24,000 bases of DNA from Leptolyngbya sp. SIO1E4 (lineage in GTDB: Bacteria; Cyanobacteriota; Cyanobacteriia; Phormidesmidales; Phormidesmidaceae): the NCBI GenBank assembly GCA_010672825.2, contig JAAHFU020000006.1:163549-187548 (forward strand), in the 5' to 3' direction. Position 1 is the stretch's first letter; each line of letters opens with the position of its first letter. This document shows positions 2,513-20,886 of this stretch, piece by piece. Position numbers and translations under genes: made by a program. The notes beneath the pieces are model-generated. The model was not told the origin of the DNA. It did no database searches and saw only the letters and a list, made by a program, of their open reading frames with translations.

Positions 2513-3802
2513 GTGCCGCAAGAGAAATATAGGTTTACACCTAGTAAGGCGAAATACCTGAAAGCAATGCTGACCGAGCTTGGGAAGGTTGAGCCTGGTC
2601 TCAAAATCTGTAAGGTAAATGGAACAATTCGCTATGTCGGTCTAGCGGAGTGTATCCAGAGACTTTATGCAGAACTGTCCATCCCTGGTAAACCCATAGG
2701 TAGAGACAGCCTGTCTAAATTGATTGAATGTGATGTGCCCTTTAGAGGCCGAGAGCTTCAGTATTTAATTGATTTTCTAAAAGTCACCAATTTGTTGATC
2801 CAAAAAACTGCTCAAAAAGACCCAAGCTATATTGGCACTCAACTCCGAAGAAAAGGAGTAGTGCAGTTTGTCTTTCCTGAAGAACCTGAAGCTGCTGACT
2901 TTCAAGCATGGTTTGAGGTTGGTTCGGCGGGCTACAAAAAAGGTCGTTCTGAGACATCTAGATCTGTAATCCCAGCCGAAAGGCAAATTGTTCGCCAGAT
3001 AGCTGATGGCTTGTTGGCCATTAACTATTTCGACCAGGAAGCTGGTTGTCGGCAAGCGATCAAGCGTTTGGTGCCTGCCGGTGCATTGCTATGCGGTGCT
3101 CAAGACGATCGCGTTCAGCGCTGGATTGTGAAACGCATTGTGACCTGTTTTGAAACCAGCTATGCCAGCTTAAAGAATGCTAAACGGATAGAATTTTTTG
3201 CCCCTAGTCATCAGATGAATGCTGATTTTCGCTTGTTCTGGGATGACTTAGCCAAACAAATAGGGCTGCAAGAAGCAGATGAGAATCGTGTCATTGAGTC
3301 GATTTATGAACTGCTGAAAACGACTTCACTAGTGATTGCAGTCTATGGCATTGATCGACTTGCAGCCGACAAGCAACGGGACTTTATCGAGGCTTTCTGG
3401 AGCCAAGTGTGTCAAAGATTAGTGCAGGCCAGAGAGCTACGATCGCGCCCTCGGCGTCCAGGCAAGTCGCGTCTTATTTTGCTGATGACAGAGCAAGGAA
3501 AAGAAGGACAACCCCGCCCTTACCGGAGTACCTCGTCGCGGAATACCGAGCACCCTAATATTCCGGTTTTAATTGAGCCGTTAACAGACATTTCTTTGGA
3601 TGATGTGTACAGTTGGCTGGATAATCCGCATATCATTTCGCTAATGACGAAAATTGGGCAAGACCCAGAGGTTGTTTCTGACTTGTTGGAGCAGCGTCAG
3701 GTGCATTCTGAGCCAGCCGTAATGCTGGATGCCCTGTGCTGTGTTTTGAACCTGGAGCGAGGGTTGAATGAAGTGGAGGAGTACTGGAGGCTGGCAGGAT
3801 GA
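2513..3802 (+). CDS. Hypothetical protein with a degenerate (probably inactive) STAND/P-loop-like core; first gene of the MoxR-vWA operon
   Basis: 429-aa ORF with a GTG start preceded by AGGGGA. Its stop overlaps the next start (ATGA at 3799-3802). AGALLCGAQDDRVQRW sits where a Walker A would be but lacks GK[ST]. SLVIAVYGIDRL resembles the NACHT hhhhDGhDE Walker B with the first Asp lost. SRLILLMTEQ follows. Family assignment is by eye only. Confidence 0.65.
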   Translation: MPQEKYRFTPSKAKYLKAMLTELGKVEPGLKICKVNGTIRYVGLAECIQRLYAELSIPGKPIGRDSLSKLIECDVPFRGRELQYLIDFLKVTNLLIQKTAQKDPSYIGTQLRRKGVVQFVFPEEPEAADFQAWFEVGSAGYKKGRSETSRSVIPAERQIVRQIADGLLAINYFDQEAGCRQAIKRLVPAGALLCGAQDDRVQRWIVKRIVTCFETSYASLKNAKRIEFFAPSHQMNADFRLFWDDLAKQIGLQEADENRVIESIYELLKTTSLVIAVYGIDRLAADKQRDFIEAFWSQVCQRLVQARELRSRPRRPGKSRLILLMTEQGKEGQPRPYRSTSSRNTEHPNIPVLIEPLTDISLDDVYSWLDNPHIISLMTKIGQDPEVVSDLLEQRQVHSEPAVMLDALCCVLNLERGLNEVEEYWRLAG

Positions 3803-4869
3803 GTGAGGCTATGCGCTATGAGGGAACGCTGCAGCCGCCTGTTGAGGGTGCCCGGGATACAGAGCTACGTCGGTATTATCCCTATCTACCGGAACCGGGG
3901 TTGGTCGAAGCGGTGAATTTAGCGATTGACCTGCATCGCCCCTTGTTGTTGGAGGGGGAACCAGGCTGTGGCAAGACCCGTTTAGCAGGGGCTGTAGCCT
4001 ACGAGCTGACGCAGAAAGTTCGCCAGGGTACGAAGAAGGGGAATCAAGACTTTTGGTGGCCGTATTTCAGTTGGAATGTGAAATCGACCTCGCGGGTGCG
4101 GGATGGACTATATCGCTATGATGCCGTTAACCGTCTGCGGGATACGCAGATTGTGGGAGCTGATCCAGAGCGGCTGCAGGGCTTCTTAGATGAATCAGAA
4201 GCGGACAAGTTTCAAAAGCTGAGGCAAGAATTGAAGCAAGTTCTGCAGCGGTTGATGGATTGGGAGAAGGCTTATTTTAAGTGGGGGCCGTTGGGCGAAG
4301 CATTGCAATGGCAGAAGAATTATCGACCTATTTTGTTGATCGATGAGATTGACAAAGCCGACAGTGATTTTCCAAATGATCTGTTGCTAGAACTCGAAGA
4401 GTTTCGGTTTGATATTCCTGAGTTGGGTCAGTCGATCACACCGCCCCCAGAGGAACAGGAACCCATCATTTTTATCACCAGTAATCGGGAAAAGCCGCTG
4501 CCCGATCCCTTCCTGCGGCGCTGCGTTTATTACTATGTAGAGTTTCCGCAAAAAGGACACCTGACTGAGATTATTCAGCAGCGTTTTGAGTCTGTAAGCA
4601 AAAACGAAGCCAAGCTGATCAAGCTGGCAGTCGAACAATTTTATGCGATTCGCGAAATCCTAGAACCGCAGCCGGGGAGTCGGCCTCCAGGCACCAGTGA
4701 GTTTTTGGAATTCTTGACGGTGATTCTGCGTCGGGCTAAACGAACCTCGGTTGATGATACGGTCAAGGTTGTGGAGAAACTAGCAGAACATGACTCCCTG
4801 CTCGGCATATTGTTGAAGACGAAGGCCGATCAAGACCTTTACCACGACTACGTGAACCAAGATGATTGA
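3799..4869 (+). CDS. MoxR-type AAA+ ATPase
   Basis: 356-aa ORF. Walker A is LLLEGEPGCGKT (GEPGCGKT at 3955-3978). Walker B is PILLIDEIDKAD, followed by FPNDLLLELEE. The sensor-1 region is IIFITSNRE and the Arg-finger-like motif is LPDPFLRRC. It is translationally coupled on both sides. Confidence 0.85.
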   Translation: MSEAMRYEGTLQPPVEGARDTELRRYYPYLPEPGLVEAVNLAIDLHRPLLLEGEPGCGKTRLAGAVAYELTQKVRQGTKKGNQDFWWPYFSWNVKSTSRVRDGLYRYDAVNRLRDTQIVGADPERLQGFLDESEADKFQKLRQELKQVLQRLMDWEKAYFKWGPLGEALQWQKNYRPILLIDEIDKADSDFPNDLLLELEEFRFDIPELGQSITPPPEEQEPIIFITSNREKPLPDPFLRRCVYYYVEFPQKGHLTEIIQQRFESVSKNEAKLIKLAVEQFYAIREILEPQPGSRPPGTSEFLEFLTVILRRAKRTSVDDTVKVVEKLAEHDSLLGILLKTKADQDLYHDYVNQDD

Positions 4870-6040
4870 CACGCTGCAGCCATATCCTGATGGGCTTTTG
4901 CAGGCAATGTTTGAAGCTCTGCGAGAGGCTGGCTTGGAGCTAACGCTGGATCAGTACAGTTTGCTGCGTCGGGCTGTGCTGCTGGGGTATGGCGGCGGGT
5001 GGGATGATCTGAAGCGGTTGTGTCGTTTGCTATGGGTAAAGCCGAGCAGTCACTATGACGGTGACGTGTTCGATCGCGCTTTTGATGCCTTTGTTGAGCA
5101 ACATCAGCTCGTTCCAGTCAGGGATGACCTATCGCCACAATCAGAACTAATCGAGCCTCCTTTAGTATCTGAGCCGCCATCAGAATCGGCACTAGACCCG
5201 ACGATGAGTGAGCGATCGCTGCCCCAGGTGCCGCCGCGCAAGACGACATCGCAGCAATCTGATGACGCGGGTAAAGTGCCGACTGCCTTTAAGAGCAGCG
5301 ATAGCGTCCCACACATACCTTCTCAATACGCCTTTAAACTAAGACCAACGAGTCTGCCACTGCAAGCAACAACCGTTCCTGCCCAGTGGCAAGCCTTGCG
5401 GCAACCATTGCCAGTGAGTCGCGATGATGAGCTGGATTTATCAGCAACGGTCGATCAGATATTGCAGGAAGGAATCTTTAGTGATGTGGTGCTGCGGCCT
5501 GTGTTGGCGCGTCGGGCGGAACTACTATTGCTAGTGGATGATGCTAGCCCGATGATGCCGTTTCGCCCCGCCTTGCAGCCGCTGATTGATGCGATCACTG
5601 AGGATCGGATTACCCCCGCTCAGATATATCGCTTCACGCGATTTCCCGATGATTATCTTTATGATTGGCAGCGCAGCACGCGGGCGATTCCGATGACGAC
5701 TGTGCTGGAACGGGCGCATCAGAACCGAACGATTGCTCTGATTTGGAGTGACAGCGGTGCGGCTACTGACAGCATTGATGCCATCTATGAAACCAACATG
5801 TATCGCTTTCTGCGGCAGTTGGCGCTGAATGTGCGGGTGCTGTTTTGGCTAAATCCACTGCCTGCTAGCCGCTGGATGGACACCTCGGCTCAGCAGCTAG
5901 CTCGGATGTTAGATGGCCGGATGATGCCTCTGGGACAGGATATGTGGCGTGAGCTGACGCGGCAGATGTTGAATCCGCAGGGCGTTTATTTGCAGCCTTA
6001 CCTCTGTACTGAAAGTGCAGCATTTGAGGAGGTTCTGTGA
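4862..6040 (+). CDS. von Willebrand factor A (vWA)-like protein, partner of the MoxR ATPase
   Basis: 392-aa ORF whose start overlaps the previous stop (ATGATTGA at 4862-4869). It has an N-terminal helical region, a Pro/Ser-rich linker, then a vWA-like core. LLLLVDDASPMM sits at the MIDAS DxSxS position (partly degenerate) and IALIWSDSGAA comes later. Adjacency to a MoxR ATPase supports the call. Confidence 0.6.
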   Translation: MIDTLQPYPDGLLQAMFEALREAGLELTLDQYSLLRRAVLLGYGGGWDDLKRLCRLLWVKPSSHYDGDVFDRAFDAFVEQHQLVPVRDDLSPQSELIEPPLVSEPPSESALDPTMSERSLPQVPPRKTTSQQSDDAGKVPTAFKSSDSVPHIPSQYAFKLRPTSLPLQATTVPAQWQALRQPLPVSRDDELDLSATVDQILQEGIFSDVVLRPVLARRAELLLLVDDASPMMPFRPALQPLIDAITEDRITPAQIYRFTRFPDDYLYDWQRSTRAIPMTTVLERAHQNRTIALIWSDSGAATDSIDAIYETNMYRFLRQLALNVRVLFWLNPLPASRWMDTSAQQLARMLDGRMMPLGQDMWRELTRQMLNPQGVYLQPYLCTESAAFEEVL

Positions 6041-7611
6041 TGATAGCCCCCGTTCAAGACGCTCAGGATTTCTTACAAGTTGATACGTTTCGGAAGCGGT
6101 ATGGTGAAGCGGCTATGCGGTTGGCCTATCACGGAGCCTTTCCGCTGACGCTAACGACCAATCTGCTCTATTGCATCCGCGAAAACTTTGTCCCGGAAGT
6201 GCCCTGGTATGCGGTGGGGGATGTACTGTTATCGGGGTTATGCCGTCAGGTGGGGCACGACCTTTATGAGATGACTGCCGCAACGCGCAGGGGGTTATTA
6301 GAGGGGCTGAAGGATGACTTGGGCGATCAAGCCCAAGCTCGGGTGGAGCGCTTAGAGCAATTTATGTTGGCCTACGTGCAGCAGCGATTGGTCACAGAGA
6401 AGCACTACATCCAACGCATGATTGGGGACAAGCAAGTGTTTCGCTGGACGGCGCTGGCTCCGTTTCGCCCGGAGCAGGAGCTGGTGGAGGTAATTCGCCG
6501 CGATTTGGCCAACCTAGCTGCCAGAGATGATTCTGAGGAACGCTTTTGGTTAGCGCGGTTGGTGAAAAGTCAGGCAGATTGGTTGACGGATTCGGGGTAT
6601 CGAGTACTGTTGCTGGACTGGACGGAGCAAATTGCGGCGACGGGTACAATTGAGCCGAGTGTTGAAGCCGCTGCCAAAACGCTTGCTATTGGCTTGCCTG
6701 TGAAGCCGTTGGACTTTGAGGTGGTGATGCTGCGCCCTGCGGGGGCAACCGATGAGCTACAGCCCTTTGACTTTCAGGTGGTGACGGTCAATGCAAGGGG
6801 TGAGGAACTGACCCGCCAGACCCAGCAAGCGTTTAAGTTTCTGGAACCGTTGGGCGAAACAACACTGCCCCTGGAGATGGTGGCGATTCCTGGCGGTCAG
6901 TTTTTGATGGGTGCCCCCAAGGGTGAAAAAGATGCAATGAAGGCTGAACGCCCACAGCATCAGGTTACGATTACGCCTTTCTTTATGGGGCGAACGCCTG
7001 TGATACATGCTCAATGGCGATTTGTGGCAGGGTTGCCGCAAGTCAGTCAAAAGCTAAACACTGAGCTTGCCCGCTTTAAGAGCAATAACTTACCCATCGA
7101 GCAAGTGTCTTGGGATGATGCGATGGAGTTTTGTGCGCGGTTATCTAACTACACGCAGCGAGACTATCGACTGCCGACCGAGGCGGAGTGGGAATATGCT
7201 TGCCGCGCTGACACGACAACTCCGTTTCACTTTGGCGCGACGATCACGTCGAACTTAGCGAACTATTACGGCTCTGAGGTCTATCAGCAGGAGCCCAAGG
7301 GGGAATATCGTAATAAGACGACTCCCATTGATCATTTTGGGATAGCTAATGCCTTTGGCCTGAGTGACATGCATGGCAATGTATGGGAGTGGTGTTTGGA
7401 TCATTGGCATAGCAACTATAAAGGCGCACCAACAGATGGTAGCGCTTGGGGGACGGACGATAAGGATGCTTATCGCGTCCTACGCGGCGGCTCCTGGGAT
7501 AACTTTCCGAGGTCTTGCCGGTCTGCCTTTCGCTACGTCAATACACGCGTCCACCGCAACGACTTCATCGGTTTTCGTGTTGTGTGCGTTGCCCCGAGGA
7601 CTCTTCCATAA
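6037..7611 (+). CDS. Two-domain protein: unknown N-terminal domain plus C-terminal FGE-sulfatase (SUMF1/C-type-lectin fold) domain; DGR target 1
   Basis: 524-aa ORF with its start overlapping the previous stop (GTGA at 6037-6040; ATG at 6040). Classic FGE-sulfatase motifs are present: FDFQVVTVNARGEE, MVAIPGGQFLMG, YRLPTEAEWEYACRA, GLSDMHGNVWEWCLDHW, RVLRGGSW, GFRVVC. The hypervariable tract lies at the extreme 3' end. Confidence 0.85.
   Translation: MMIAPVQDAQDFLQVDTFRKRYGEAAMRLAYHGAFPLTLTTNLLYCIRENFVPEVPWYAVGDVLLSGLCRQVGHDLYEMTAATRRGLLEGLKDDLGDQAQARVERLEQFMLAYVQQRLVTEKHYIQRMIGDKQVFRWTALAPFRPEQELVEVIRRDLANLAARDDSEERFWLARLVKSQADWLTDSGYRVLLLDWTEQIAATGTIEPSVEAAAKTLAIGLPVKPLDFEVVMLRPAGATDELQPFDFQVVTVNARGEELTRQTQQAFKFLEPLGETTLPLEMVAIPGGQFLMGAPKGEKDAMKAERPQHQVTITPFFMGRTPVIHAQWRFVAGLPQVSQKLNTELARFKSNNLPIEQVSWDDAMEFCARLSNYTQRDYRLPTEAEWEYACRADTTTPFHFGATITSNLANYYGSEVYQQEPKGEYRNKTTPIDHFGIANAFGLSDMHGNVWEWCLDHWHSNYKGAPTDGSAWGTDDKDAYRVLRGGSWDNFPRSCRSAFRYVNTRVHRNDFIGFRVVCVAPRTLP
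7477..7611 (+). repeat. DGR variable region 1 (variable core 7501-7569; may start as early as 7411)
   Basis: Aligned to 9607-9741 (offset 130). There are 24 identical nt (7477-7500), then 21 mismatches in 70 nt, 20 of them at codon positions 1-2. Then come 29 identical nt, GGTTTTCGTGTTGTGTGCGTTGCCCCGAG. Confidence 0.75.
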
Positions 7612-7644
7612 CCCTTTAGCGCTTTTTACTCTCTTACTTTCTTT

Positions 7645-7657
7645 GGCGCGAAGCGCC
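7645..7657 (+). promoter_or_regulatory. Conserved GC stem-loop GGCGC-GAA-GCGCC followed by a T-run, downstream of VR1; DGR target-recognition hairpin and/or terminator
   Basis: 5-bp GC stem with a 3-nt loop, followed by TCGAATTTTTTTG. A paralogous copy downstream of VR2 keeps the stem and changes the loop. Confidence 0.45.
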
Positions 7658-7704
7658 TCGAATTTTTTTGGAAAATGGTGATTATTGTTGATTGAGCCTT
7701 TCCC

Positions 7705-8043
7705 ATGAACGATCTACCCATCATCCAGAAGACCTATGACTTGATTAAGTGGTATATACCCATTCTCAATAAGCTACCTAAAGAGCATAAGTTTACCTTG
7801 GGTGATCGCATCACCAACAGACTGTACGATTTACTCGAAGGATTGATTCAGGCCCGTTATACCCGCCAGAAACTGCCGCAACTCTATGAACTCAATCTCC
7901 AGCTTGAGCTTTTGCGTCACCAAACTCGGTTGCTGTTGGATTTTGACCTGATGTCCGCCAAACGCTATGCCTACGTTGGTCAGCAAATCAATGGGATTGG
8001 CATCGAACTCGGTGGATGGATTAAGCAGCAGAGAGAAGCATGA
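7705..8043 (+). CDS. avd: Avd-like four-helix-bundle protein (DGR accessory variability determinant)
   Basis: 112-aa ORF. It shows the motif style typical of this family: [45 protein letters not shown]. Its stop overlaps the RT start (ATGA at 8040-8043). Confidence 0.8.
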
Positions 8044-8927
8044 AACGTTACGGCAACTTCTGGCCCGACATTATTGATTTTGAAAACTTGCTGCAGGCGG
8101 CGCGGCAAGCCCAGCGCGGCAAGCGGTATCGCCCGAATGTACTGGCCTTTAACTACAACCTGGATAAGGAACTCCTGCAATTGCAGCGAGAGCTGCAGGA
8201 AAAAACGTATCGACCAGGCAAGTATCGTACTTTCAAAATTGAAGATCCTAAGCCGCGTTTAATTTCAGCCGCACCTTACCGGGACAGAGTCGTCCATCAC
8301 GCCCTGTGCAACATTATTGTGTCGCCCCTCGAACGGACATTCATAACCGATACCTATGCCAATCGTGTTGGGTATGGCACTCACCGCGCTCTGCGTCGAT
8401 TTGTTCACTTCGCTCGCACCAGTCGCTATGTGTTGCAATGTGATGTCCGCAAATACTTTCCTAGCTTGGATCATGTGATTCTCAAAACCATGATTCGACG
8501 CAAAATCAAGTGCCCAGATACCCTTTGGCTAATTGACACGATTATTGATGGCAGCAATCCTCAAGGCGAAACCATTGAGTACTTTCCTGGGGATGATCTG
8601 TTAGCACCCGTGCAACGACGTCGGGGACTTCCGATTGGCAACCTCACCAGCCAGTTCTTTGCCAACCTATATTTGAATGGGTTTGACCATTTTGTTAAAG
8701 AACAGCTCAAATCTCGTAAGTACCTAAGGTATGTTGATGATTTTGCGTGCTTTGCGGACGATCGCTCTTTTCTGGTGGATGCGCGATCGCACATCGAAGC
8801 CTATCTCAAGACCTTGCGACTGCGGCTGCATCCCGTGAAAAGCCAGTTGTTTGAAACTAGGTTTGGCGCTAATTTCGTCGGCTTTCGCGTGCTGCCCGAT
8901 CTCATTCGTGTCCGCAGAGTTTTCTAG
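8040..8927 (+). CDS. DGR-type reverse transcriptase, apparently lacking the C-terminal thumb region
   Basis: 295-aa ORF. RT motifs: [50 protein letters not shown] (8634-8678, DGR hallmark), YVDD (8730-8741), LHPVKSQ and FVGFRV. The ORF stops 8 codons after FVGFRV, where DGR RTs normally continue for tens of residues. Confidence 0.9.
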
Positions 8928-8952
8928 CCCCATCCCCTACTATCCCTTTCCC

Positions 8953-9741
8953 ATGCCTGAATTAGTTGCTCAGCGGGAACGCCGCAAAACGCTTTATGTA
9001 ACTGAACCCCTTGGCTCAAAGTTGGGGTTAGATATAGTGATCATCCCTGGCGGTAGCTTTTTAATGGGGTCTCCTGATGACGATCCTGATAGGCTCAGTA
9101 ACGGTAGTGAAGAACCCCAGTACCTCGTTACAGTGCCTACCTTTTTGATGGGACGTTATCCCGTTACTCAAGCCCAGTGGCAGTTTGTTGCAGGACTGAA
9201 GCAAAAGAAGCGAAAGCTAGATCCCAATCCGGCACATTTCAAAGGTGATGTTCGCCCGGTGGAATCGGTGTCTTGGGACGATGCAGTGGAATTCTGCGAT
9301 CGGCTCTCAATCCATAGTGGACGCGAGTATCGCCTGCCTACTGAAGCCGAATGGGAATATGCCTGCCGTGCTGGCACAACAACGCCTTATCACTTTGGTG
9401 AGAGCATCAACACTAACCTAGCTAACTATAACGGCAAATATAAGGGCACCACTGCTGTTGATCACTTTGGGATTGCCAATGCCTTTGGCCTAAGCGATAT
9501 GCATGGCAATGTATGGGAGTGGTGTTTGGATCATTGGCATGACAGTTATGAAGGAGCACCCACGGATGGTAGTACTTGGGTAAAGGACGGTGAGGATGCT
9601 TATCGAGTCCTACGCGGCGGCTCCTGGGATTGCCTTCCGTGGCATTGCCGGTCTGCCTCTCGCGACGCCTATACGAGCAACTGCCGCACCGACGACTACG
9701 GTTTTCGTGTTGTGTGCGTTGCCCCGAGAACTCTTCCGTAA
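8953..9741 (+). CDS. Stand-alone FGE-sulfatase/C-type-lectin-fold protein; DGR target 2, which looks like a 5'-truncated paralogue of target 1
   Basis: ATG at 8953 gives MPELVAQRERRKTLYVTEPLGSKLGLDIVIIPGGSFLMG... This parallels ...GEELTRQTQQAFKFLEPLGETTLPLEMVAIPGGQFLMG in target 1. It has the same FGE motifs through GFRVVCVAPRTLP. The track ORF begins at a TTG at 8851, overlapping the RT, and would add a signal-peptide-like [22 protein letters not shown]. The start is unresolved. Confidence 0.8.
   Translation: MPELVAQRERRKTLYVTEPLGSKLGLDIVIIPGGSFLMGSPDDDPDRLSNGSEEPQYLVTVPTFLMGRYPVTQAQWQFVAGLKQKKRKLDPNPAHFKGDVRPVESVSWDDAVEFCDRLSIHSGREYRLPTEAEWEYACRAGTTTPYHFGESINTNLANYNGKYKGTTAVDHFGIANAFGLSDMHGNVWEWCLDHWHDSYEGAPTDGSTWVKDGEDAYRVLRGGSWDCLPWHCRSASRDAYTSNCRTDDYGFRVVCVAPRTLP
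9607..9741 (+). repeat. DGR variable region 2 (variable core 9631-9699)
   Basis: Paralogue of 7477-7611. The flanks are identical and the core differs at 21 of 70 positions, with the differences at codon positions 1-2. Confidence 0.75.
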
Positions 9742-9774
9742 CCCTCTTGCTCTTTTTACTCTCTTACCCTCTTT

Positions 9775-9787
9775 GGCGCGGAGCGCC
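9775..9787 (+). promoter_or_regulatory. Second copy of the post-VR stem-loop (GGCGC-GGA-GCGCC) followed by a T-run
   Basis: Same position relative to the stop codon as 7645-7657. The stem is conserved and the loop reads GGA instead of GAA. It is followed by TCGAAATTTTTTG. Confidence 0.45.
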
Positions 9788-9922
9788 TCGAAATTTTTTG
9801 GGAATTTAGGGAAGGAGAAACAGCAGACAGAGCAGGGACTAGATGACGAATCTTCACGCTTCCCATTATGGCTATTTCCTTCCTCTTTTCGTTTCCCAAG
9901 ACGGGTTGTTTACAAGCATTAA

Positions 9923-12154: not shown

Positions 12155-13873
12155 ATGACTGAATCTAACCAGCCGCCTCAATCACCCCACCCCATTGTGA
12201 CCTCGTCTTCCTTCGCAGGTGAATCATCCAACTCATTGAATGGCCATGGCTCGTCAGAGCCCACAACCGCTGCCGAATTGGCAGGGCTCCAGCTCGACGC
12301 AGAGGATAGGCTCGCCGCCTCAGAGCCACTCCCCGAAACGCCCAGCCCAACGACGAGTCGTCGCAGCATTGCCCATGCCCCCTTACCGCGAACCCTTCTC
12401 GTCGCCGGGGCACTGGGCTTCGTCGCGACCTTTACGCTCATATTTAGTCGCCTCAACAGTGGTAATCGACCGGTGGCAGACACCCCCGAAGCGCCTGAAG
12501 CCCCACCGGAAGAACCCTTTGACCAGAGCGATGTCTACCGGAGCCAACTCGCCTTAGTCGATCAGGCGGACGCTCAACAGCCTCAAGCCGCTCCCACTCC
12601 CCCCTCGGAGCCGCCACCTGTCGCCGAGGAAGACCCACCGGAAGCGCCGCCAACCGTCGCCACGGCGGCACCCTCCCCGCCGCCGAGACCGACTCCCGCC
12701 GCACAACCCGAACCGCCTCCGCGATCCGCTCCCGCCGCACAACCCGAGCCCGAACCCATCGATCCCTTCGAGCGCTGGCATACGTTGGCACAAGCGGGCA
12801 CACAAGGAGAACAGTTCGCCCTCGTGCCACCGGTTGAACCCGCGGCCCCCCTGACCGTCACGCCGGGGAACACGTCTGACACGAGTCCCCCCTCGAATCC
12901 GGTCGCGCCGATCGAGGTCGCAGCGGCCGCCGGAACCGCTGGATTCCCCGTCGCGATCATCGGCGACAATCCCATCGAGGGGATGCCACCTCCCAGCGCT
13001 CCATCCGCTGAGCCTGCCTTCTCAACACCCATACCACAGCCCCAATCCCAGGAGTCGCAGGCGTCTCTTTTAGTCTCAGCGCCACCGTCGATTCCGATTC
13101 AGACCGCCCAAACCAGTTCCCCAGGCGCACAGGGCATCCTCGAACGGCGTCCGGTCAGTGGTATTCAGACGGAACCGCAGACGATTCAGGGCAATACGCA
13201 GGTGTTACAGGTACCCATGGGCACGACAGCCGCTGCCGAACTCGCGGTCCCCATCGTCGCCTCTCGGAGTGGGGAAACCTTGGGACGCTTTGCCGTCCGC
13301 CTCAAAGACGACCTCAAAGATCCCTACGACCAGGTCGCCTTACCCGCAGGCACCCTGCTGATCACAGATGTCCTCAGCATCGATGATGATTCCTTGGCCA
13401 TTCAACAAACCGTCGTCGCACTCGTTTATGAGGACGCCCAAGGACAGATTGTACAAGAGGCCATCGCCCCGAATGTCCTCATTATTCGGGGCAGTGATGG
13501 CGGAGCCTTGATCGCGTCCCTCTCAGGCGGCGGCAATCGTCGCAACCTGTTTACCGACATCCTGGCAATTGGCGGGGCGTCAGCGCTAGCGGAAGTGGGA
13601 AGCGCCCTCAACGAGGGTGACCTCTTCACCTCCACGGCCAGCAGTTCCGATGGTGATGAGACCGAAACGACCACCACCACCGTCCGCGATAGTGATGACC
13701 CGAATGTTCTCGGGGCCGTTATGGAAGGCTTCTTTGAGTCCACGGCTGACCGGCTGCAGGGTGAAATTGAGGACGACCGGGATAATGACGAGGATCTCGA
13801 TCCCGTCCTGACCGTCACTCAGGGTCAAGACTTACAAGTCTTTGTCAACGGCATCTTGAACATCCGGAGGTAG
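12155..13873 (+). CDS. VirB10/TrbI-like protein
   Basis: 572-aa ORF with the classic VirB10 layout. It has an N-terminal cytoplasmic tail, one TM (LLVAGALGFVATFTLIF) and a long Pro-rich region (includes PPRPTPAAQPEPPPRSAPAAQPEPEP). The C-terminal domain reads LQVPMGTTAAAELAVPIVAS...GRFAVRLKDDL...LPAGTLLITDV...VLIIRGSDGGALIA. Confidence 0.65.
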   Translation: MTESNQPPQSPHPIVTSSSFAGESSNSLNGHGSSEPTTAAELAGLQLDAEDRLAASEPLPETPSPTTSRRSIAHAPLPRTLLVAGALGFVATFTLIFSRLNSGNRPVADTPEAPEAPPEEPFDQSDVYRSQLALVDQADAQQPQAAPTPPSEPPPVAEEDPPEAPPTVATAAPSPPPRPTPAAQPEPPPRSAPAAQPEPEPIDPFERWHTLAQAGTQGEQFALVPPVEPAAPLTVTPGNTSDTSPPSNPVAPIEVAAAAGTAGFPVAIIGDNPIEGMPPPSAPSAEPAFSTPIPQPQSQESQASLLVSAPPSIPIQTAQTSSPGAQGILERRPVSGIQTEPQTIQGNTQVLQVPMGTTAAAELAVPIVASRSGETLGRFAVRLKDDLKDPYDQVALPAGTLLITDVLSIDDDSLAIQQTVVALVYEDAQGQIVQEAIAPNVLIIRGSDGGALIASLSGGGNRRNLFTDILAIGGASALAEVGSALNEGDLFTSTASSSDGDETETTTTTVRDSDDPNVLGAVMEGFFESTADRLQGEIEDDRDNDEDLDPVLTVTQGQDLQVFVNGILNIRR

Positions 13874-13877
13874 ACCT

Positions 13878-14783
13878 ATGCGCCAGATTTTAAGGTCCGT
13901 CATGCTTTCTTTTGTGCCCTTCGTTGCAGCCATCCCCATCATCAGTACACCAGCTCCGGCGATCGCTCAGGTCTTACCGTCCGTAGATTCTGAATTTCTG
14001 CCACCGCTGCGGCACGCCCAGCAATCGGTCGCCTTTGTCAGTCAAGAGCGGGCCTATCGCTATGCCACCCCGATTCGTCTCTATCCAGGCCGCAGTGAGA
14101 TGATTGACTTCCGAACCGATGAAGTCATCACCTACATCCAACTCTCGGATCTCTCGGGCATTGTCTATCAGACCAATGCTCCCTTGGAGTCCGGCCAAGC
14201 GAAGCTGATTGCCTTGCGTCGGATCGAGGAGCTGGACTTCCCTGGCCAAACCGAAAGTCCGGTCCCCAACTTACTGGTGACCACCATCGACCCCCAAGGC
14301 GAACAACGCACCTACACCTTCAACCTGATATCTCACAACCGACAACCGCAAGCCGATGACACCAATGGCGTTGCCATCGTCACCGCCGCCGAAGCCCAGA
14401 CAGAGCGGCTCAATATGCGACGCAATGAGGGTCACCTCACGGGGGAAACCACCCTCACCGTCGATACCTTGCAAACCGCTTTGGGGCTCGCCGATATTGA
14501 TGACCTGGTCGTGGGCCTCGATACCGCGATCGCCTTGGGCTATACCCCAGCCAACGATCCAGTCGTCGCTCAAACCCAAACGGTCATTGATCTAGTTGAA
14601 GCGGGCACCCCCTTACGGCAGGCCATTCAAGACGCAGGGCTGCCTATCGAGGTGGCGATCGCGCTCGGTGAAATCGGTCTGAGGAGTGCATTCTTCCCGA
14701 TTGATGGCCCAGAACCCCCAGCTGAAGTACCGGCTGAAGACATCGAGCCCCGTAGCGAGGAGGAGCCGGATGTCGCCCCTTAA
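13878..14783 (+). CDS. Secreted VirB9/TrbG-like protein
   Basis: 301-aa ORF with a signal peptide (MRQILRSVMLSFVPFVAAIPIISTPAPAIAQ). The N-terminal domain pattern is IRLYPGRSEMIDFRTDEVITYIQLSD...AKLIALRRIE...NLLVTTID...RTYTFNLI. It lies between the VirB10-like and VirD4-like genes. Confidence 0.55.
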   Translation: MRQILRSVMLSFVPFVAAIPIISTPAPAIAQVLPSVDSEFLPPLRHAQQSVAFVSQERAYRYATPIRLYPGRSEMIDFRTDEVITYIQLSDLSGIVYQTNAPLESGQAKLIALRRIEELDFPGQTESPVPNLLVTTIDPQGEQRTYTFNLISHNRQPQADDTNGVAIVTAAEAQTERLNMRRNEGHLTGETTLTVDTLQTALGLADIDDLVVGLDTAIALGYTPANDPVVAQTQTVIDLVEAGTPLRQAIQDAGLPIEVAIALGEIGLRSAFFPIDGPEPPAEVPAEDIEPRSEEEPDVAP

Positions 14784-16593
14784 TCGCGATCCGCTGGCAC
14801 AGATAGAGCAGGCAGAACAGACGACGGAAGAGCCGCCCCTCTGGATGGAGCCGATCGCAACCACCTGGGACACAATATCCGCGATGCTATTCAATGCACA
14901 GGGCCTAGCACTGATTAGCATTTTTGCCGTCCTGATGATTCTGCAACTGTTTGCCCGCAAACGCGGCGACTTGACTTCGGCCCGGTGGGCCAGAGGACGT
15001 GAGAAGGGCCAAGCCCGCAAACGAGCCCAGAAGCAACTTAAGAGCAACCGCATCAACGACGTGACGCTGTGGTGCGGCACGCCCAACACATCATCGACGC
15101 TCTATATTCCCGATGCCAATCAAAGTATCGTCGTCATTGGGCGACCGAAGTCTGGTAAAACCTTCAGCGTCATCAATCCGCTGCTCAAATCCGCGATCGA
15201 GCAACAGATGGCCCTGTGCCTCTATGACTACAAGGCCGATGACCAGGGCTTAGGCGGACAGATGGCCTACATTGCGACCTTGGCCGCTCGGCATGACTAC
15301 AAGGTGAATGTCTTTGCCCCAGGGCGGCCCTATAGTTGTGTCATCAATCCCCTCGATTTTCTGGAAGACGAGAATGACGACACCACTGCCGCCGTCCTCG
15401 CTGAGGTGTTCCACAAAAATCTGAAGGGGGACAAGGGACGGGGGGATGACTTCTTCGGCCCCGCTGGACAACGCTTGATTCAAGCCTTATTCCAGTTTGC
15501 GAAATCGACGCCATATCCCGATATCGCCATGGCCTTCAGTATCGCTCGATTGACTCATTTACCCGAGCGATTGATTTATGCCGACCAGCAGGGACGCTTA
15601 CCGCTAGCCGTTCGCATTGCCTTTTCTCAGCTGATGCAAACAGCGGGGGCTGAGAAAACCACCTCTGGCATTACAGCCACGGCCAGTGATGTGCTAACCC
15701 GCTTCATGAGTCAGCGCATCCTGCCCTCGCTCATGGGCAAAACCAACATCAGCATTGAACTGGGGCAGAAAGAACTCATCGTTTTTCAGAGCGATATCTT
15801 TCGGCAAGCCGTTGTCAACCCCTTACTGGCCGCCCTCATCAACGTCATCATCGACCGGAATTTCTCGATTCAGCGAACGGTCCCCTTAGTCTTTAGTGCC
15901 GATGAATTTCCCACCCTGTATCTTCCAAAGTGTCCCACTTGGCCCAACGAGCATCGCTCCAAAGGCTTTGTCGGCATCTTTGGCTTCCAGTCCTTCCCCC
16001 AGATTCGCGACACCTATGGTCGGGAAAAGACCGATATCTTACTGTCCGGGGTCGGTACTCATTTCTGGTTCAATCCCGGCAACCGGGATACCGCCAAAGC
16101 CTATTCTGACTACATCGGGGAGACCGAAATCACGATTCGCAATACCTCCTGGTCAAGGCAGCGCGGCGACGACCGGGGGCGCAACCGCACGATATCCGAG
16201 CAGACCCGCACCCGGCCTCTGATTCTAGCCGACGATATCACCCGCTTTGATGTTGGGGAATGTATCGTGATCAATCCGGCTTACCGCAATCAAAAGCAAG
16301 CCAACTTGCCCCAACACGTCAATCAGATTCGCATTTCTGAGGCCGATCAAACCCTGGAAAAGCACTGCGAACAGCTCTGGCAAGAAAAGATCAGGCCGCA
16401 GCTCATTCAACGCGAACAGCGACGACGACCCGACCTCGACATTGAGGCCCAGCTCCAGCTTCGCATCGACGAAGCCGAGCGGCGATTACCCCTGCCTCCC
16501 GACAAGGCAGAAGACTCCGGTGGAACACCCCCGGCTCTCGCCAATCACAAACAGACTCCCGCTGCGGTGGGACGCTTTATCCCTGACCTATAA
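14770..16593 (+). CDS. Type IV coupling protein (VirD4/TraG/TraD family ATPase)
   Basis: ATG at 14770 is preceded by GAGGAGGAG and overlaps the previous gene's end; the track ORF begins earlier at 14686. It has an N-terminal TM (GLALISIFAVLMILQLF). Walker A is VVIGRPKSGKTF (GRPKSGKT at 15139-15162). Walker-B-like is LVFSADEFPTLY. GIFGFQSFPQIRDTYG is typical of T4CPs. Confidence 0.85.
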   Translation: MSPLNRDPLAQIEQAEQTTEEPPLWMEPIATTWDTISAMLFNAQGLALISIFAVLMILQLFARKRGDLTSARWARGREKGQARKRAQKQLKSNRINDVTLWCGTPNTSSTLYIPDANQSIVVIGRPKSGKTFSVINPLLKSAIEQQMALCLYDYKADDQGLGGQMAYIATLAARHDYKVNVFAPGRPYSCVINPLDFLEDENDDTTAAVLAEVFHKNLKGDKGRGDDFFGPAGQRLIQALFQFAKSTPYPDIAMAFSIARLTHLPERLIYADQQGRLPLAVRIAFSQLMQTAGAEKTTSGITATASDVLTRFMSQRILPSLMGKTNISIELGQKELIVFQSDIFRQAVVNPLLAALINVIIDRNFSIQRTVPLVFSADEFPTLYLPKCPTWPNEHRSKGFVGIFGFQSFPQIRDTYGREKTDILLSGVGTHFWFNPGNRDTAKAYSDYIGETEITIRNTSWSRQRGDDRGRNRTISEQTRTRPLILADDITRFDVGECIVINPAYRNQKQANLPQHVNQIRISEADQTLEKHCEQLWQEKIRPQLIQREQRRRPDLDIEAQLQLRIDEAERRLPLPPDKAEDSGGTPPALANHKQTPAAVGRFIPDL

Positions 16594-17259: not shown

Positions 17260-20200
17260 ATGGTATTAACTTTGCTGGGGATTTCAGTCAAGCTGCTTTT
17301 ATTAACTAAAAGTATGGAAGAGTCCAGAGCTGTTTCTCTCCTCCGGGAACTGTTAGATGCCACAAGCTTGAGTGACTTGCAGGAAGATATTTTTCGTCGT
17401 TCGTGGCGGGGACTTTCTTACTCTCAAATATCTGTCGAGCTTGGATACGATACCGGTTATGTCAGGGTTGTTGGATTTCAGCTTTGGCAAGCACTTTCTG
17501 GCGTTTTAGGGCAACCTGTTACCAAGAAAAACCTGCGCTCTAGTTTTGAGCAGTATGGTCAACAGCTTGCCGCACCATCGCCAAGATCAAGTGCAGCGAT
17601 AACGCCAACTGACGTCGCAGCCGCCTGCCCTCAAGATTGGGGCGATCGCCCTGACCTGACTAGCCTCTACGGTCGCGAGTCTGAGCTAGCCCTATTGCGA
17701 GACTGGATTCGGCGCGATCGCTGTCGGCTCATTGGGATTTTTGGCATCGGCGGCATTGGCAAAACGGTGATTGCGGCTCACTGTGCCCAGCAGCTTCAGG
17801 ATGAGTTTCAGTATGTGTTTTGGCGATCGCTGCGCAATGCGCCTCCCCCGGATCAATTTTTGGTAGAGGCTATTCAGTTTTTATCCGATCAGCAAGAAAT
17901 TGCCCAAAACCTGCCGCTAGACGTGGCCGATCGCATTGACCACTTGCTGGGATATCTCAAACGGCAACGGTGCTTGGTCATCCTCGATAATGCGGAGGCG
18001 ATCTTACAGAGCGGCGCATATACGGGGCGCTATCGGCCTGGTTATGAAACCTACGGCAGCCTACTGCAGCAAATGGGAGAAGAACACCATCAAAGTTGTG
18101 TGTTGCTCACCAGCCGGGAAAAGAGCCGCGAGTTCGTACGGCTGGCGGGTGACCAGTTACCCGTGCGAGCACTGCAATTAGGTGGTCTGGCTGCCGCCGA
18201 AGGACAGGCAGTGATGGAGCAAGCCGGGACGTTTGCGGCGACCCCTGCGGTGTGGCAACAGCTAGTGGATTTCTACGTGGGCAATCCCCTGGCGTTACGG
18301 ATTGCGGGGGCGGCGATTCAAGAACTCTTTGCCGGTGAAGTGGCGCGCTTTTTGGACTATTCGGTGTATGTCTTTGACGACATTAATGATTTGCTGGACG
18401 AGCAGTTCAGCCGACTGTCAGCGTTGGAGCAGCAGGTCATGTATTGGCTGGCGATCGAGCGCGAGCCCGTGACCATCGAAACCCTGGCAGCCAACATTTT
18501 GGAGTCCGTGGCCAAACGGGACCTTATGGAAGCGCTGAAATCTCTCGTGCGGCGATCGCTGATTTACCCGGCGGCGATGGGCTTTACCCAGCAACCTGTG
18601 GTCATGGAATATCTCGTCGAACGGTTGCGGGTGCAAATGCAGCAGGAGATTATCTCTCAGAGTCCCAACCTGCTGATTAGCCATGCCCTGATCAAAAACC
18701 AAGCCAAGGAATATGTCAAAACCAGTCAGCAGCGGGTATTAGTCGATCCGCTCGGTCGGGCGCTGTTGGATGAACTTGGCAGTCTGGCGGCGCTGGCCGA
18801 CCAGCTACAACAGTTGACGGACTTGTTGCGATCGGGTTGGGCCGAACGCGCTGGCTATGCTGCCGGTAACATTCTCTATTTGCTGCAGCAGTGCAGGCTA
18901 GATTTGCAGAACTACGACCTGTCGCAGTTGCCTTTGCGTCAAGTTGACCTGCAAATGACGGCTCTGCCAGGGGTCAACCTACAAGGGGCAGTGCTAGATC
19001 AGACGGTGTTTGCTAACAACCTGGACTATTACATGTCAGTCGCCATCTCACCAAACCAGCGGTACATTGCCGTCGGCAGCACTGAAGGCGACGTTATTCT
19101 GTGGGACTTTCCCGAAATGAGGTCTCACCGAGTCCTGCGGGGGCATGGGCCGATGTTTGTGGTTTGGTTGGCCTTTAGCGCTGATGGTCAGTATCTGGCC
19201 AGTGCTGGGTTTGATCACGCAGTCAAGGTTTGGCATATCGAGACGGCAACCTGTGTGGCGACCTTACAGGCGCATCGCGGGCCGGTCGGCGCTGTCGTTT
19301 TTACGCCTGATGGCAGCCAGTTGATTTCTAGCAGTCACGATGGCCAAATCATCTTTTGGGAAACGACGAACTGGACCTGTGTGCAAGCGATCCAGGCCGA
19401 CCCAGGACAGGTGGCCGCGATCGCCCTCAGTCCCGACGGCAGGACGTTACTGAGTGGCCACGAGCTGGGCCAGATTGAGTTACGGGATTTATCTACCGGC
19501 GATCGCCGGGTCAGCCACGAGCATCACAACGCTTACATTTGGGCGGCAGTCTACCCCACCACGGGTAACCAGGTCTTCTCCGCGAGCCATGACCAAACGA
19601 TCCGGGCGTGGAATGTGGAGACTGGCGAGTGCCTATTTACCCTCACAGGCCATCAAGGTGAAATATCGGGTCTCGCCTGTACTCCCGACGGGCGCATCTT
19701 AGCCAGTGCGTGTCACGACCAAACAGTCCGCTTATGGGATGCGCAAACGGGAAAATGTCTGAATGTTTTGCAAGGGCATCAGGGGATCGTTTGGGATGTT
19801 GATATCAGCCCAGATGGTGAAATCCTCACCAGCGTAGGGTTTGATCGCAGCGTGCGGCTGTGGGAAATCAAAACGGGACGACCGCTAAAAACCCTGCAGG
19901 GCAGTTATAAAGCGCTTTGGTCAGTGATATTTAGCCCCGATGGCCGAACGCTGATCAGCGGCGGCGAAGATCGGCGTATCTGGTTATGGGATTTTGAACG
20001 GCGAACGTATACCCATCAGTGGACGGCCCACACGTATGAAATTACGGCGATCGCCATTCACCCTCAAGGCCAGATACTGGCGACCGGTGGTGGCGATGGC
20101 ACGGTTAAATTGTGGGACCTAGACACCGGCCAATGTTTACACACCCTGGTTGACTATCAGGCTTGGCTCTGGGCGATCGCCTTTAGTCCCGATGGGCGCT

Positions 20201-20886
20201 GGGTCGCGGGCACCGGCCATCGCTACAGCACCTGTGTTTGGGATGTGTATACGGGGCAATGCGTCGCCACCCTAGACGAGCACCATCAAAATTTGGTCTG
20301 GAGTCTGGCTTTCAGCCACGATGGTCAATACATGGTCACAGGCTGTCACGATCTCACACTGAGATTATGGCACCTCGAAACTTGGGACTGCTTTGCCGCG
20401 TTGTCCGGACAGATCAAGGGATACATCAACAGTGTCGATTGCAGCCCCAATAGTCACCTCATCGCCTGCGGCGGTTACGACGCTCAGGTTTACATCTGGG
20501 ATGCGGAGGCCCAGACTTGTCTGCACGTTTTACCCGGACATCAAGGCGTGATCTGGAACGTGAAATTTAGTCCGACGGGCGATCGCATTGCCAGTACCAG
20601 TTTTGACGGCACCGTGCGGGTGTGGGATGTGCAGACGGGGGAATGTTTGCAGACGCTAGCGGGTCACCAGAGCTTTGTGAACTCCGCCTGCTTCCATCCC
20701 CACGACAACATTTTGGTCAGCGCTAGTCGCGACGGCACTCTAAAAGTGTGGGACTTGGCGACGGGCGATTGTACCGCCACCCTCAGCCCACCCAAAATGT
20801 ACGAGGGGCTGAACATCACGGGCGTGCGGGGACTCGACCCCGTGCAGCGAGAAATGCTGTTGGCCCTGGGCGCGATCGAGCATTAA
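17260..20886 (+). CDS. STAND NTPase: N-terminal sigma-r4/LuxR-like HTH, NB-ARC-type P-loop NTPase, 14 WD40 repeats
   Basis: 1208-aa ORF; the more likely start is ATG at 17314 (MEESRAV...). The HTH-like segment is LSDLQEDIFRRSWRGLSYSQISVELGYDTGYVRVVGFQLWQAL. Walker A is LIGIFGIGGIGKT (17743-17766) and Walker B is CLVILDNAE. Fourteen WD repeats span ~19030-20770. The tail YEGLNITGVRGLDPVQREMLLALGA is typical of cyanobacterial WD40 proteins. Confidence 0.9.
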   Translation: MVLTLLGISVKLLLLTKSMEESRAVSLLRELLDATSLSDLQEDIFRRSWRGLSYSQISVELGYDTGYVRVVGFQLWQALSGVLGQPVTKKNLRSSFEQYGQQLAAPSPRSSAAITPTDVAAACPQDWGDRPDLTSLYGRESELALLRDWIRRDRCRLIGIFGIGGIGKTVIAAHCAQQLQDEFQYVFWRSLRNAPPPDQFLVEAIQFLSDQQEIAQNLPLDVADRIDHLLGYLKRQRCLVILDNAEAILQSGAYTGRYRPGYETYGSLLQQMGEEHHQSCVLLTSREKSREFVRLAGDQLPVRALQLGGLAAAEGQAVMEQAGTFAATPAVWQQLVDFYVGNPLALRIAGAAIQELFAGEVARFLDYSVYVFDDINDLLDEQFSRLSALEQQVMYWLAIEREPVTIETLAANILESVAKRDLMEALKSLVRRSLIYPAAMGFTQQPVVMEYLVERLRVQMQQEIISQSPNLLISHALIKNQAKEYVKTSQQRVLVDPLGRALLDELGSLAALADQLQQLTDLLRSGWAERAGYAAGNILYLLQQCRLDLQNYDLSQLPLRQVDLQMTALPGVNLQGAVLDQTVFANNLDYYMSVAISPNQRYIAVGSTEGDVILWDFPEMRSHRVLRGHGPMFVVWLAFSADGQYLASAGFDHAVKVWHIETATCVATLQAHRGPVGAVVFTPDGSQLISSSHDGQIIFWETTNWTCVQAIQADPGQVAAIALSPDGRTLLSGHELGQIELRDLSTGDRRVSHEHHNAYIWAAVYPTTGNQVFSASHDQTIRAWNVETGECLFTLTGHQGEISGLACTPDGRILASACHDQTVRLWDAQTGKCLNVLQGHQGIVWDVDISPDGEILTSVGFDRSVRLWEIKTGRPLKTLQGSYKALWSVIFSPDGRTLISGGEDRRIWLWDFERRTYTHQWTAHTYEITAIAIHPQGQILATGGGDGTVKLWDLDTGQCLHTLVDYQAWLWAIAFSPDGRWVAGTGHRYSTCVWDVYTGQCVATLDEHHQNLVWSLAFSHDGQYMVTGCHDLTLRLWHLETWDCFAALSGQIKGYINSVDCSPNSHLIACGGYDAQVYIWDAEAQTCLHVLPGHQGVIWNVKFSPTGDRIASTSFDGTVRVWDVQTGECLQTLAGHQSFVNSACFHPHDNILVSASRDGTLKVWDLATGDCTATLSPPKMYEGLNITGVRGLDPVQREMLLALGAIEH

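Follow-up and report, generated by a model that had tools for sequence, protein, structure and literature searches.

MoxR-vWA ternary systems were described by Kaur, Burroughs, Iyer and Aravind (eLife 2020; PMC7159879), who distinguished an iSTAND subsystem in which the FGS domain is the commonest variable domain (about 22% of iSTAND systems), and who documented a link between ternary systems and diversity-generating retroelements (DGRs). Ternary sensors diversified by a DGR, in which a long lectin target is paired with a short one, were reported by Doré et al. (PNAS 2024; PMC10907252) from many multicellular bacteria, including a cyanobacterial clade of the reverse transcriptase (RT). Moreover, in Nostoc punctiforme a locus of the order CHAT / MoxR / VWA / target1 / target2 / Avd / RT was shown to be expressed jointly, and its two targets were measured to undergo ongoing adenine mutagenesis (mBio 2025; PMC12691664). 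Here, we analyzed a 24 kb stretch of DNA (the window) from the metagenome-assembled genome (MAG) of Leptolyngbya sp. SIO1E4, in which four overlapping genes for an inactive STAND (iSTAND) protein, an AAA+ ATPase, a vWA protein and a lectin-type sensor are followed by the avd and RT genes of a DGR and by a second FGE gene. The most likely reading, in which we have good confidence, is that of a four-gene iSTAND-class MoxR-vWA ternary conflict system with a DGR-marked lectin sensor, whose linked DGR was recently disabled by a deletion of ~550 nt, leaving the receptor specificities frozen unless a DGR acts in trans. The features of the locus are as follows:

2513–3802, + strand: iSTAND protein, 429 aa, start codon GTG at 2513 (Pfam iSTAND, 8.4e-13)
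3799–4869, + strand: MoxR-like AAA+ ATPase, 356 aa (Pfam AAA_5, 6e-09; AAA, 7.9e-08)
4862–6040, + strand: stand-alone CoxE-type vWA protein, 392 aa, assigned via homologues matching VWA_CoxE
6037–7611, + strand: long sensor protein, 524 aa (FGE-sulfatase, 3.1e-55, aa 280–516)
7482–7598, + strand: core of the first variable region (VR1), aligned to the template repeat of relative L001
7645–7657, + strand: GC hairpin GGCGC-GAA-GCGCC followed by a T-run, 34 nt 3′ of the VR1 stop codon
7705–8043, + strand: avd, 112 aa, intact (NCBIfam DivGenRetAVD, 3.6e-42)
8040–8927, + strand: DGR reverse transcriptase, 295 aa, C-terminally truncated (RVT_1, 3.4e-17)
8911–8925, + strand: deletion junction near 8917, from comparison with L001
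8953–9741, + strand: short lectin-only FGE protein, 262 aa, carrying the second variable region, VR2 (FGE-sulfatase, 1.3e-53)
9612–9728, + strand: VR2 core, from repeat comparison and alignment to the L001 template repeat
9775–9787, + strand: second GC hairpin, GGCGC-GGA-GCGCC, 3′ of VR2

Rfam and tRNA scans gave no matches. Our list of open reading frames (ORFs) reproduced all gene coordinates, overlaps and the intergenic gap given in a first-pass annotation that had been made from the letters alone. The iSTAND and ATPase genes overlap by ATGA, so that start and stop codons are shared, the ATPase and vWA genes by 8 nt, ATGATTGA, and the vWA and sensor genes by GTGA (4 nt). The sensor gene is separated from avd by 93 nt, and avd overlaps the RT gene by ATGA.

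With the iSTAND systems of Kaur and coworkers, a family concentrated in filamentous cyanobacteria, the locus shares an inactive STAND protein as third component, an AAA+ ATPase, presumably MoxR-like, lacking VMAP-type extensions, a CoxE-type vWA protein and an FGS/FGE variable domain; in that family the iSTAND N-terminus is the site of effector or EAD fusions. It differs from them in that, in the clade of the window, the vWA and FGE proteins are encoded by separate overlapping genes, which gives four genes rather than one vWA-effector polypeptide, and in that the iSTAND N-terminus is an orphan domain instead of a catalogued effector or EAD. The loci of Doré et al. and that of N. punctiforme have in common with the window the MoxR-vWA module, a long FGE target, a short lectin-only target, adjacent avd and RT genes, and adenine-type variation in the VRs; in contrast, they possess a template repeat (TR) and a full-length RT, while the window has no TR and its RT is truncated.

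A VMAP-type example from Nodosilinea (locus L004), with the order TIR, VMAP, AAA, an 865-aa vWA-FGE protein, avd, RT, TR and a short FGE gene, shares with the window the lineage of the DGR cassette (RT 83% identical, FGE module 62%, same VR 3′ end and hairpin), but its third component is VMAP and not iSTAND, and its vWA domain is fused to FGE. The degraded DGR remnant known from Anabaena sp. 90 (PMC7517822) is comparable as a partial cassette devoid of essential parts in a context rich in mobile elements; there, however, the RT alone remains, whereas the present cassette still has avd, both targets and most of the RT, and the exact deletion can be mapped.

The architecture is thus one of an already described kind. 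The first-pass annotation had suggested that novelty may lie in the specific architecture and had known of no experimental characterization; the architecture was described in 2020 and its DGR link in 2024, and that link was tested in part in N. punctiforme in 2025. The published picture of these systems is left unchanged by the locus, which is distinct in three points: the separate vWA and sensor genes, a trait of the whole clade, the orphan N-terminal domain and the mappable DGR lesion.

Variable regions and damage to the retroelement

The 3′ ends of the two FGE genes form an 83% repeat (7318–7617 versus 9448–9747). Mismatches within 7498–7570 are all on codon positions 1 and 2 (AAC/TGC, TAC/GAC, GTC/AAC etc.), and the flanking differences between both copies are mostly at third positions. 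The variable codons of VR1 lie at 7501–7568, with further possible variable positions at 7411–7462. As a proxy template, the window having no TR of its own, we used the TR of L001, the nearest DGR relative (RT 89% identical). VR1 and VR2 differ at 17 of the 30 positions that are adenines in this TR, compared with 4 of the 87 others (Fisher p=3.5e-9), and the VRs of L001 itself differ from their TR at adenines only (15/30 versus 0/87). Because the differences between VR1 and VR2 fall at TR adenines and at codon positions 1 and 2, the pattern argues firmly that a DGR has acted on both FGE genes. This agrees with the first-pass annotation, which had proposed a DGR variable region at the 3′ end of the sensor gene and a second diversified FGE module further on, and which had assigned an FGE-type fold to both targets, as the FGE-sulfatase matches confirmed.

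The copy at 9448–9747 was also considered as a TR and was ruled out, since the mismatch adenines occur on either copy and this copy lies inside a full FGE ORF. With regard to the start of the second FGE gene, it is most likely ATG 8953, 26 nt 3′ of the RT stop codon and in frame with an ORF beginning at 8851; the TTG start of the latter ORF, which overlaps the RT gene, is less likely. A short second target of this type is common in related loci.

A GC-rich 3′ end and a GGCGC-GNA-GCGCC hairpin (5 bp) follow both VRs of the window as well as the VRs of L001 and L004. The hairpin was detected in a scan for terminator-like structures and as a centroid fold, the fold being no better than those of shuffled sequences, and it is likely to serve as DGR target-recognition hairpin and as terminator. 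Comparison of an initiation-of-mutagenic-homing (IMH) element with its IMH* counterpart requires a TR, which is absent from the window.

Concerning the mutagenic genes themselves, Avd is matched over 104/104 positions by NCBIfam NF033474 (142.9 bits, cut-off 80; 3.6e-42) and also by bAvd (1.8e-21), and the RT retains both the IGNLTSQ and the YVDD motifs. However, the RT comprises 295 aa, compared with 352–390 aa in nearly all homologues (74–89% identity; among 119 matches listed). Its homology stops at aa 292, so that the conserved C-terminal ~65–78 residues are gone, and in the alignment the tail NDNLRR...LQxDY...WEAHLxHGDT is missing. No remnant of this tail was found in the window with the L001 sequence as query. 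Similarly, no TR was detected in the 24 kb, neither by blastn with word size 7 nor by an adenine-tolerant ungapped scan of both strands, and a query composed of the L001 RT 3′ end, TR and spacer matched only VR1 and VR2. The exact VR 3′-end pattern had no match in the genome contig collection, which does not include SIO1E4.

The lesion was mapped by alignment with L001. Positions 7591–8916 of the window align gap-free to L001 1–1326, and L001 1327 to ~1878 (~550 nt), a stretch comprising the terminal 197 nt of the RT gene, the TR (1629–1753) and a spacer, is missing; the window sequence picks up again just 5′ of the short FGE gene, with a microhomology, CCG(C/A)A, at the junction. In the intact relatives L001, L002 and L004, and in 8 of the 11 RT-bearing genome loci, the TR lies directly 3′ of the RT gene. 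The ratio of non-synonymous to synonymous substitution rates (dN/dS) relative to L001 is 0.053 for avd and 0.055 for RT codons 1–292, and there are no internal stops or lesions. Because avd and the remaining RT show dN/dS values of 0.05 and lack internal lesions, the deletion appears to be recent relative to the divergence of the window from L001.

The DGR is thus probably crippled, and rewriting of the sensors from their own locus would no longer be possible. As regards the first-pass annotation, the presence of avd and RT genes stands, and a complete DGR does not, there being no TR in the window and no RT C-terminus. Because the local TR and the RT C-terminus have been deleted, the coupling of sensor and DGR is to be seen as historical and not demonstrably current. 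The locus therewith provides a cleanly mapped case of DGR death, in which one microhomology-flanked deletion removes the template and the RT tail and leaves both hypervariable targets intact.

DGR decay was also observed independently elsewhere: L043 keeps only avd residues 1–56 and a TR-like fragment (12762–13170), L085 only avd residues 1–53 (12862–13020), and in L008 IS630-type transposase genes occupy the place of avd and RT (12732–15373).

The conserved operon and its iSTAND protein

A profile of the vWA protein retrieved 79 loci from species-representative genomes, almost all of them cyanobacterial. The AAA gene lies 5′ of the vWA gene in 59 of the 60 loci with enough upstream sequence, and the gene 5′ of AAA encodes a Pfam iSTAND protein in 47 of 60. 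The sensor N-domain is found 3′ of the vWA gene in every one of the 42 loci whose downstream sequence extends to 6 kb or more; 35 of them have one full FGE domain or more, and 25 have two. Among the 35 FGE-bearing loci, by comparison, an RT lies within 10 kb in 11, an avd fragment only in 2 (L043 and L085), and neither in 22. The closest relatives of the operon, L008 and L009 (45–72% identity across the four proteins), lack both avd and RT and carry the IS630-type transposase genes between two FGE genes; gene order and gene overlaps are the same in L008, L009 and the Nostocales locus L010. In these sequences the four-gene set behaves as a conserved unit and the DGR cassette as an accessory one, often remote, lost or decayed, because an RT is local in only 11/35 FGE-bearing loci while the four genes stay together. 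The co-conservation that the first-pass annotation expected therefore holds for the four genes and fails for avd-RT, a variable neighbour. Taken with its relatives, the locus presents the sensor operon as the unit that is conserved and the mutagenic cassette as one that is gained and lost.

In the sensor protein, a conserved N-terminal domain (~230 aa) is followed by a beta extension and then by the FGE/C-type-lectin domain with VR1. Its residues 234–524 (window 6736–7611) share 62% identity with the FGE module in the VMAP-type vWA-FGE protein of L004 (8554–9429), and no BLASTP similarity was detected between the N-terminal parts of both proteins. Because the FGE modules are this similar while the remaining parts are unrelated, the comparison suggests that the sensor cassette has been exchanged between system classes.

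The ATPase is matched by AAA_5 (36.5 bits, cut-off 22) and has intact Walker A (GEPGCGKT) and Walker B (ILLIDEID) motifs, its best solved relatives being the AAA modules of midasin. The vWA protein is 36–62% identical to stand-alone proteins, 35/37 of which match VWA_CoxE (best 4.8e-12). Its identity as a vWA protein, already named in the first-pass annotation, and its CoxE type hold indirectly, because it is the homologues that match the model. Profile searches of PDB sequences with the vWA family (A3) and with the sensor N-domain (A9) returned nothing meaningful. A single frameshifted vWA-FGE gene had been suspected, as NCBIfam SAV_2336_NTERM matches both the vWA protein (1.2e-07; profile 38–281) and the start of the sensor protein (profile 369–454). 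This idea was ruled out: all 64 homologues of the vWA protein are stand-alone proteins of ~350–410 aa, and the genes are separate in L008 and L010.

For the first protein of the operon, the match to Pfam iSTAND (PF19995; 8.4e-13, 49.5 bits, cut-off 24) covers aa 167–303. An inactive STAND core begins at ~aa 167, and the P-loop region, CGAQDDRVQRW as read from the translation, is degenerate, which is in line with the STAND-like protein that had been proposed. The public annotation gives this protein as 411 aa, starting 18 codons 3′ of GTG 2513 and excluding 2513–2566. Comparison with the homologues supports the longer form from GTG 2513, because the KYRFT motif is conserved at their extreme N-termini. 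Upstream of this start, a 14-nt motif, TTCATTTTGTCGAC, occurs twice on the + strand (2448–2461 and 2472–2485), 24 nt apart and 28–65 nt 5′ of the iSTAND start, and both copies include the palindrome GTCGAC. This motif, possibly an operator or promoter element, was not found in any of the 90 fetched loci.

The N-terminal ~145 aa of the iSTAND protein (aa 1–146; 2513–2950) form an orphan domain, with no Pfam match and no profile match to PDB sequences. An AlphaFold2 (AF2) model of this domain, built from 6 sequences, was usable (pLDDT 75.8, pTM 0.73) and had no Foldseek match in PDB or BFVD, and AF2 of the full-length protein (3 sequences) gave no usable prediction (pLDDT 42). When 1.8 billion representative proteins were searched exhaustively with HMMER, the domain was detected in 5 other proteins only. 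Of these, P0190 carries it fused to iSTAND and P0189 (295 aa) fused to EAD1, with an FGE-sulfatase gene directly 3′ (L090 162–1533); among the fetched loci, it is confined to the window, L008/L009 and L090. In L090 the orphan domain thus recurs beside a lectin-type sensor outside an iSTAND protein.

In related loci, the N-terminal modules of iSTAND proteins comprise Caspase (11), Trypsin_2 (7), CHAT (2), TIR (1), PNP (1) and HTH (1), together with 11 EADs in total (EAD1/2/4/7/8/9). Because relatives carry caspase, trypsin, CHAT, TIR or EAD modules there, the iSTAND N-terminus can be named, by analogy, as the effector position, which here would be filled by the orphan domain. The way in which it is fused resembles that of the effector modules described in PMC7159879, and an effector or signaling role is accordingly putative. 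The statement of the first-pass annotation that the operon holds no recognizable effector was correct. The orphan ~145-aa domain is the only novelty of the locus itself, which flags an uncharacterized domain at a place usually held by a protease or TIR effector. A further and tentative proposal, which we think unlikely, is that the domain is an uncatalogued effector or signaling domain of ternary conflict systems, in which case excision of TR and RT tail might have been adaptive, a "lock-in" that fixed two useful receptor specificities carried by a conjugative element, and not mere decay.

For the operon as a whole, a mechanism can be outlined whose order of steps is taken from the family literature. 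The variable lectin surface would bind a ligand derived from an invader, and the conserved sensor N-domain would relay the signal to the vWA/MoxR co-chaperone pair. ATP-driven remodelling would then allow the inactive-STAND scaffold to assemble, and assembly would activate the module at the iSTAND N-terminus, that is, a caspase, trypsin, CHAT, TIR or EAD adaptor in the relatives and presumably the orphan ~145-aa domain here. The linked DGR (avd, RT and TR) would once have rewritten both FGE genes by adenine mutagenesis, until the ~550-nt deletion took the RT C-terminus and the TR and so presumably froze two receptor specificities, barring a DGR acting in trans. The first-pass annotation had likewise read the locus as a hypervariable lectin sensor feeding an AAA+/vWA switch, and this part is supported and matches published predictions (PMC7159879, PMC10907252), while its current coupling to a DGR is not. 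A sensor-first order is that of Doré et al. (PMC10907252); the original proposal instead has VMAP or iSTAND as the sensor, and the data from the window do not separate both orders.

Weighing of the readings

Several observations weigh against a ternary conflict system with a recently disabled DGR. The ATPase matched no MoxR-specific model such as AAA_3, so that of the earlier assignment the AAA+ part stands (AAA_5, AAA, Walker A and B), and the MoxR-clade label, taken from context and literature, is putative. The vWA protein itself has no Pfam match even at E<1, and no vWA model was thus reached. Its MIDAS-like motif is imperfect (VDDASPM, 5534–5554, aa 225–231; family consensus VDDSNAM versus canonical DxSxS), and metal-dependent ligand binding by the domain may be altered. 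To our knowledge, no functional assay exists for iSTAND systems, and the signaling order is accordingly inferred. Furthermore, the searches for TR and RT cover the 24 kb window, and the same MAG has a paralogous vWA gene (P0143) on another contig, of 963 kb. Finally, the deletion is known from a single MAG assembly and might be carried by only a minority of the sampled population.

The search scope and the paralogous gene bear on the possibility that an intact second DGR elsewhere in the genome supplies TR-RNA and RT in trans, in which case avd and the truncated RT of the locus would be dispensable remnants and the sensors would still be hypervariable. Both VRs do retain the GC-rich 3′ end and the downstream hairpin, and the VR 3′ ends are nearly identical across genera. 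A remote cassette would also fit the 22/35 related loci with neither avd nor RT within 10 kb of their FGE genes, the remote targets documented in cyanobacteria (PMC7517822) and the TRs that Kaur et al. report "elsewhere in the genome" (PMC7159879). No TR or RT of this kind turned up in the window, however, and a TR acting in trans would have to match the VRs, yet the nearest relatives have another sequence in place of the VR-specific stretch GTGTGCGTTGCCCCGAG. We therefore regard a trans-acting DGR as a real, if doubtful, possibility and retain a locally disabled cassette as the preferred explanation.

A second alternative concerns function: the operon might be a signal-transduction or regulatory module that tunes environmental or cell-cell responses and is not directed against invaders, the DGR-varied lectins adjusting ligand specificity. 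Vallota-Eastman et al. (2020; PMC7517822) see cyanobacterial DGR targets, VWA-CoxE ones included, as signaling proteins, the window copy has no recognizable toxic effector, and a PADLOC scan gave only generic or weak P-loop and RT matches and otherwise matched no operon protein to a defence model. Nevertheless, the caspase, trypsin, CHAT, TIR and EAD modules at the iSTAND N-terminus of relatives are typical of abortive-infection or cell-death effectors, and the literature places the family among conflict systems and reports its statistical enrichment in multicellular bacteria (PMC7159879, PMC10907252), which makes a purely regulatory role rather improbable.

Lastly, that a complete ordinary DGR lacks its TR and RT tail only through an error of assembly, as a metagenome-assembled source and strong purifying selection on an otherwise lesion-free avd and RT might suggest, is improbable, since the ~5 nt of junction microhomology are far under assembler k-mer sizes, the breakpoints lie outside the TR/VR repeats where collapse would be expected, the join yields a clean ORF end three codons on, and related loci show independent DGR decay (avd fragments in L043 and L085, transposases in L008/L009).

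Genomic surroundings

A cluster of the type IV secretion system type lies 3′ of the locus on the + strand (12155–16593), in which a VirD4/TraG coupling protein is clearly encoded, a CagX/VirB9-like gene is weakly matched and a TrbI/VirB10-like gene stays under the Pfam cut-off, so that to describe the operon as carried among conjugation genes was fair. The best plasmid matches of the coupling protein (38–43% identity) are on cyanobacterial plasmids of 120–470 kb, and the 343-kb source contig may be a megaplasmid or the carrier of an integrative element. A system of this kind thus has type IV secretion genes for neighbours, and the nearest plasmid relatives of these genes are carried by large cyanobacterial plasmids.

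Inside the TrbI-like gene, the segment 12001–13000 has a G+C content of 65% and a strongly negative GC skew, compared with ~50–55% G+C elsewhere, and may encode a linker rich in Pro, Gly and Ala. Just 5′ of the operon and on the opposite strand, a gene for an M23 peptidase was found (1401–2237, − strand; Pfam 1.7e-08), which may be part of a transfer or cell-wall-remodelling set and not of the sensor system. Further downstream (17260–20886, + strand), the window encodes a STAND NTPase of 1208 aa, in which a ~135-aa N-terminal region without assignment precedes an NTPase domain (NB-ARC 4e-08; NACHT 1.4e-06, aa 136–353) and ~13 WD40 repeats, making it the second NLR-like conflict-type gene in the window.

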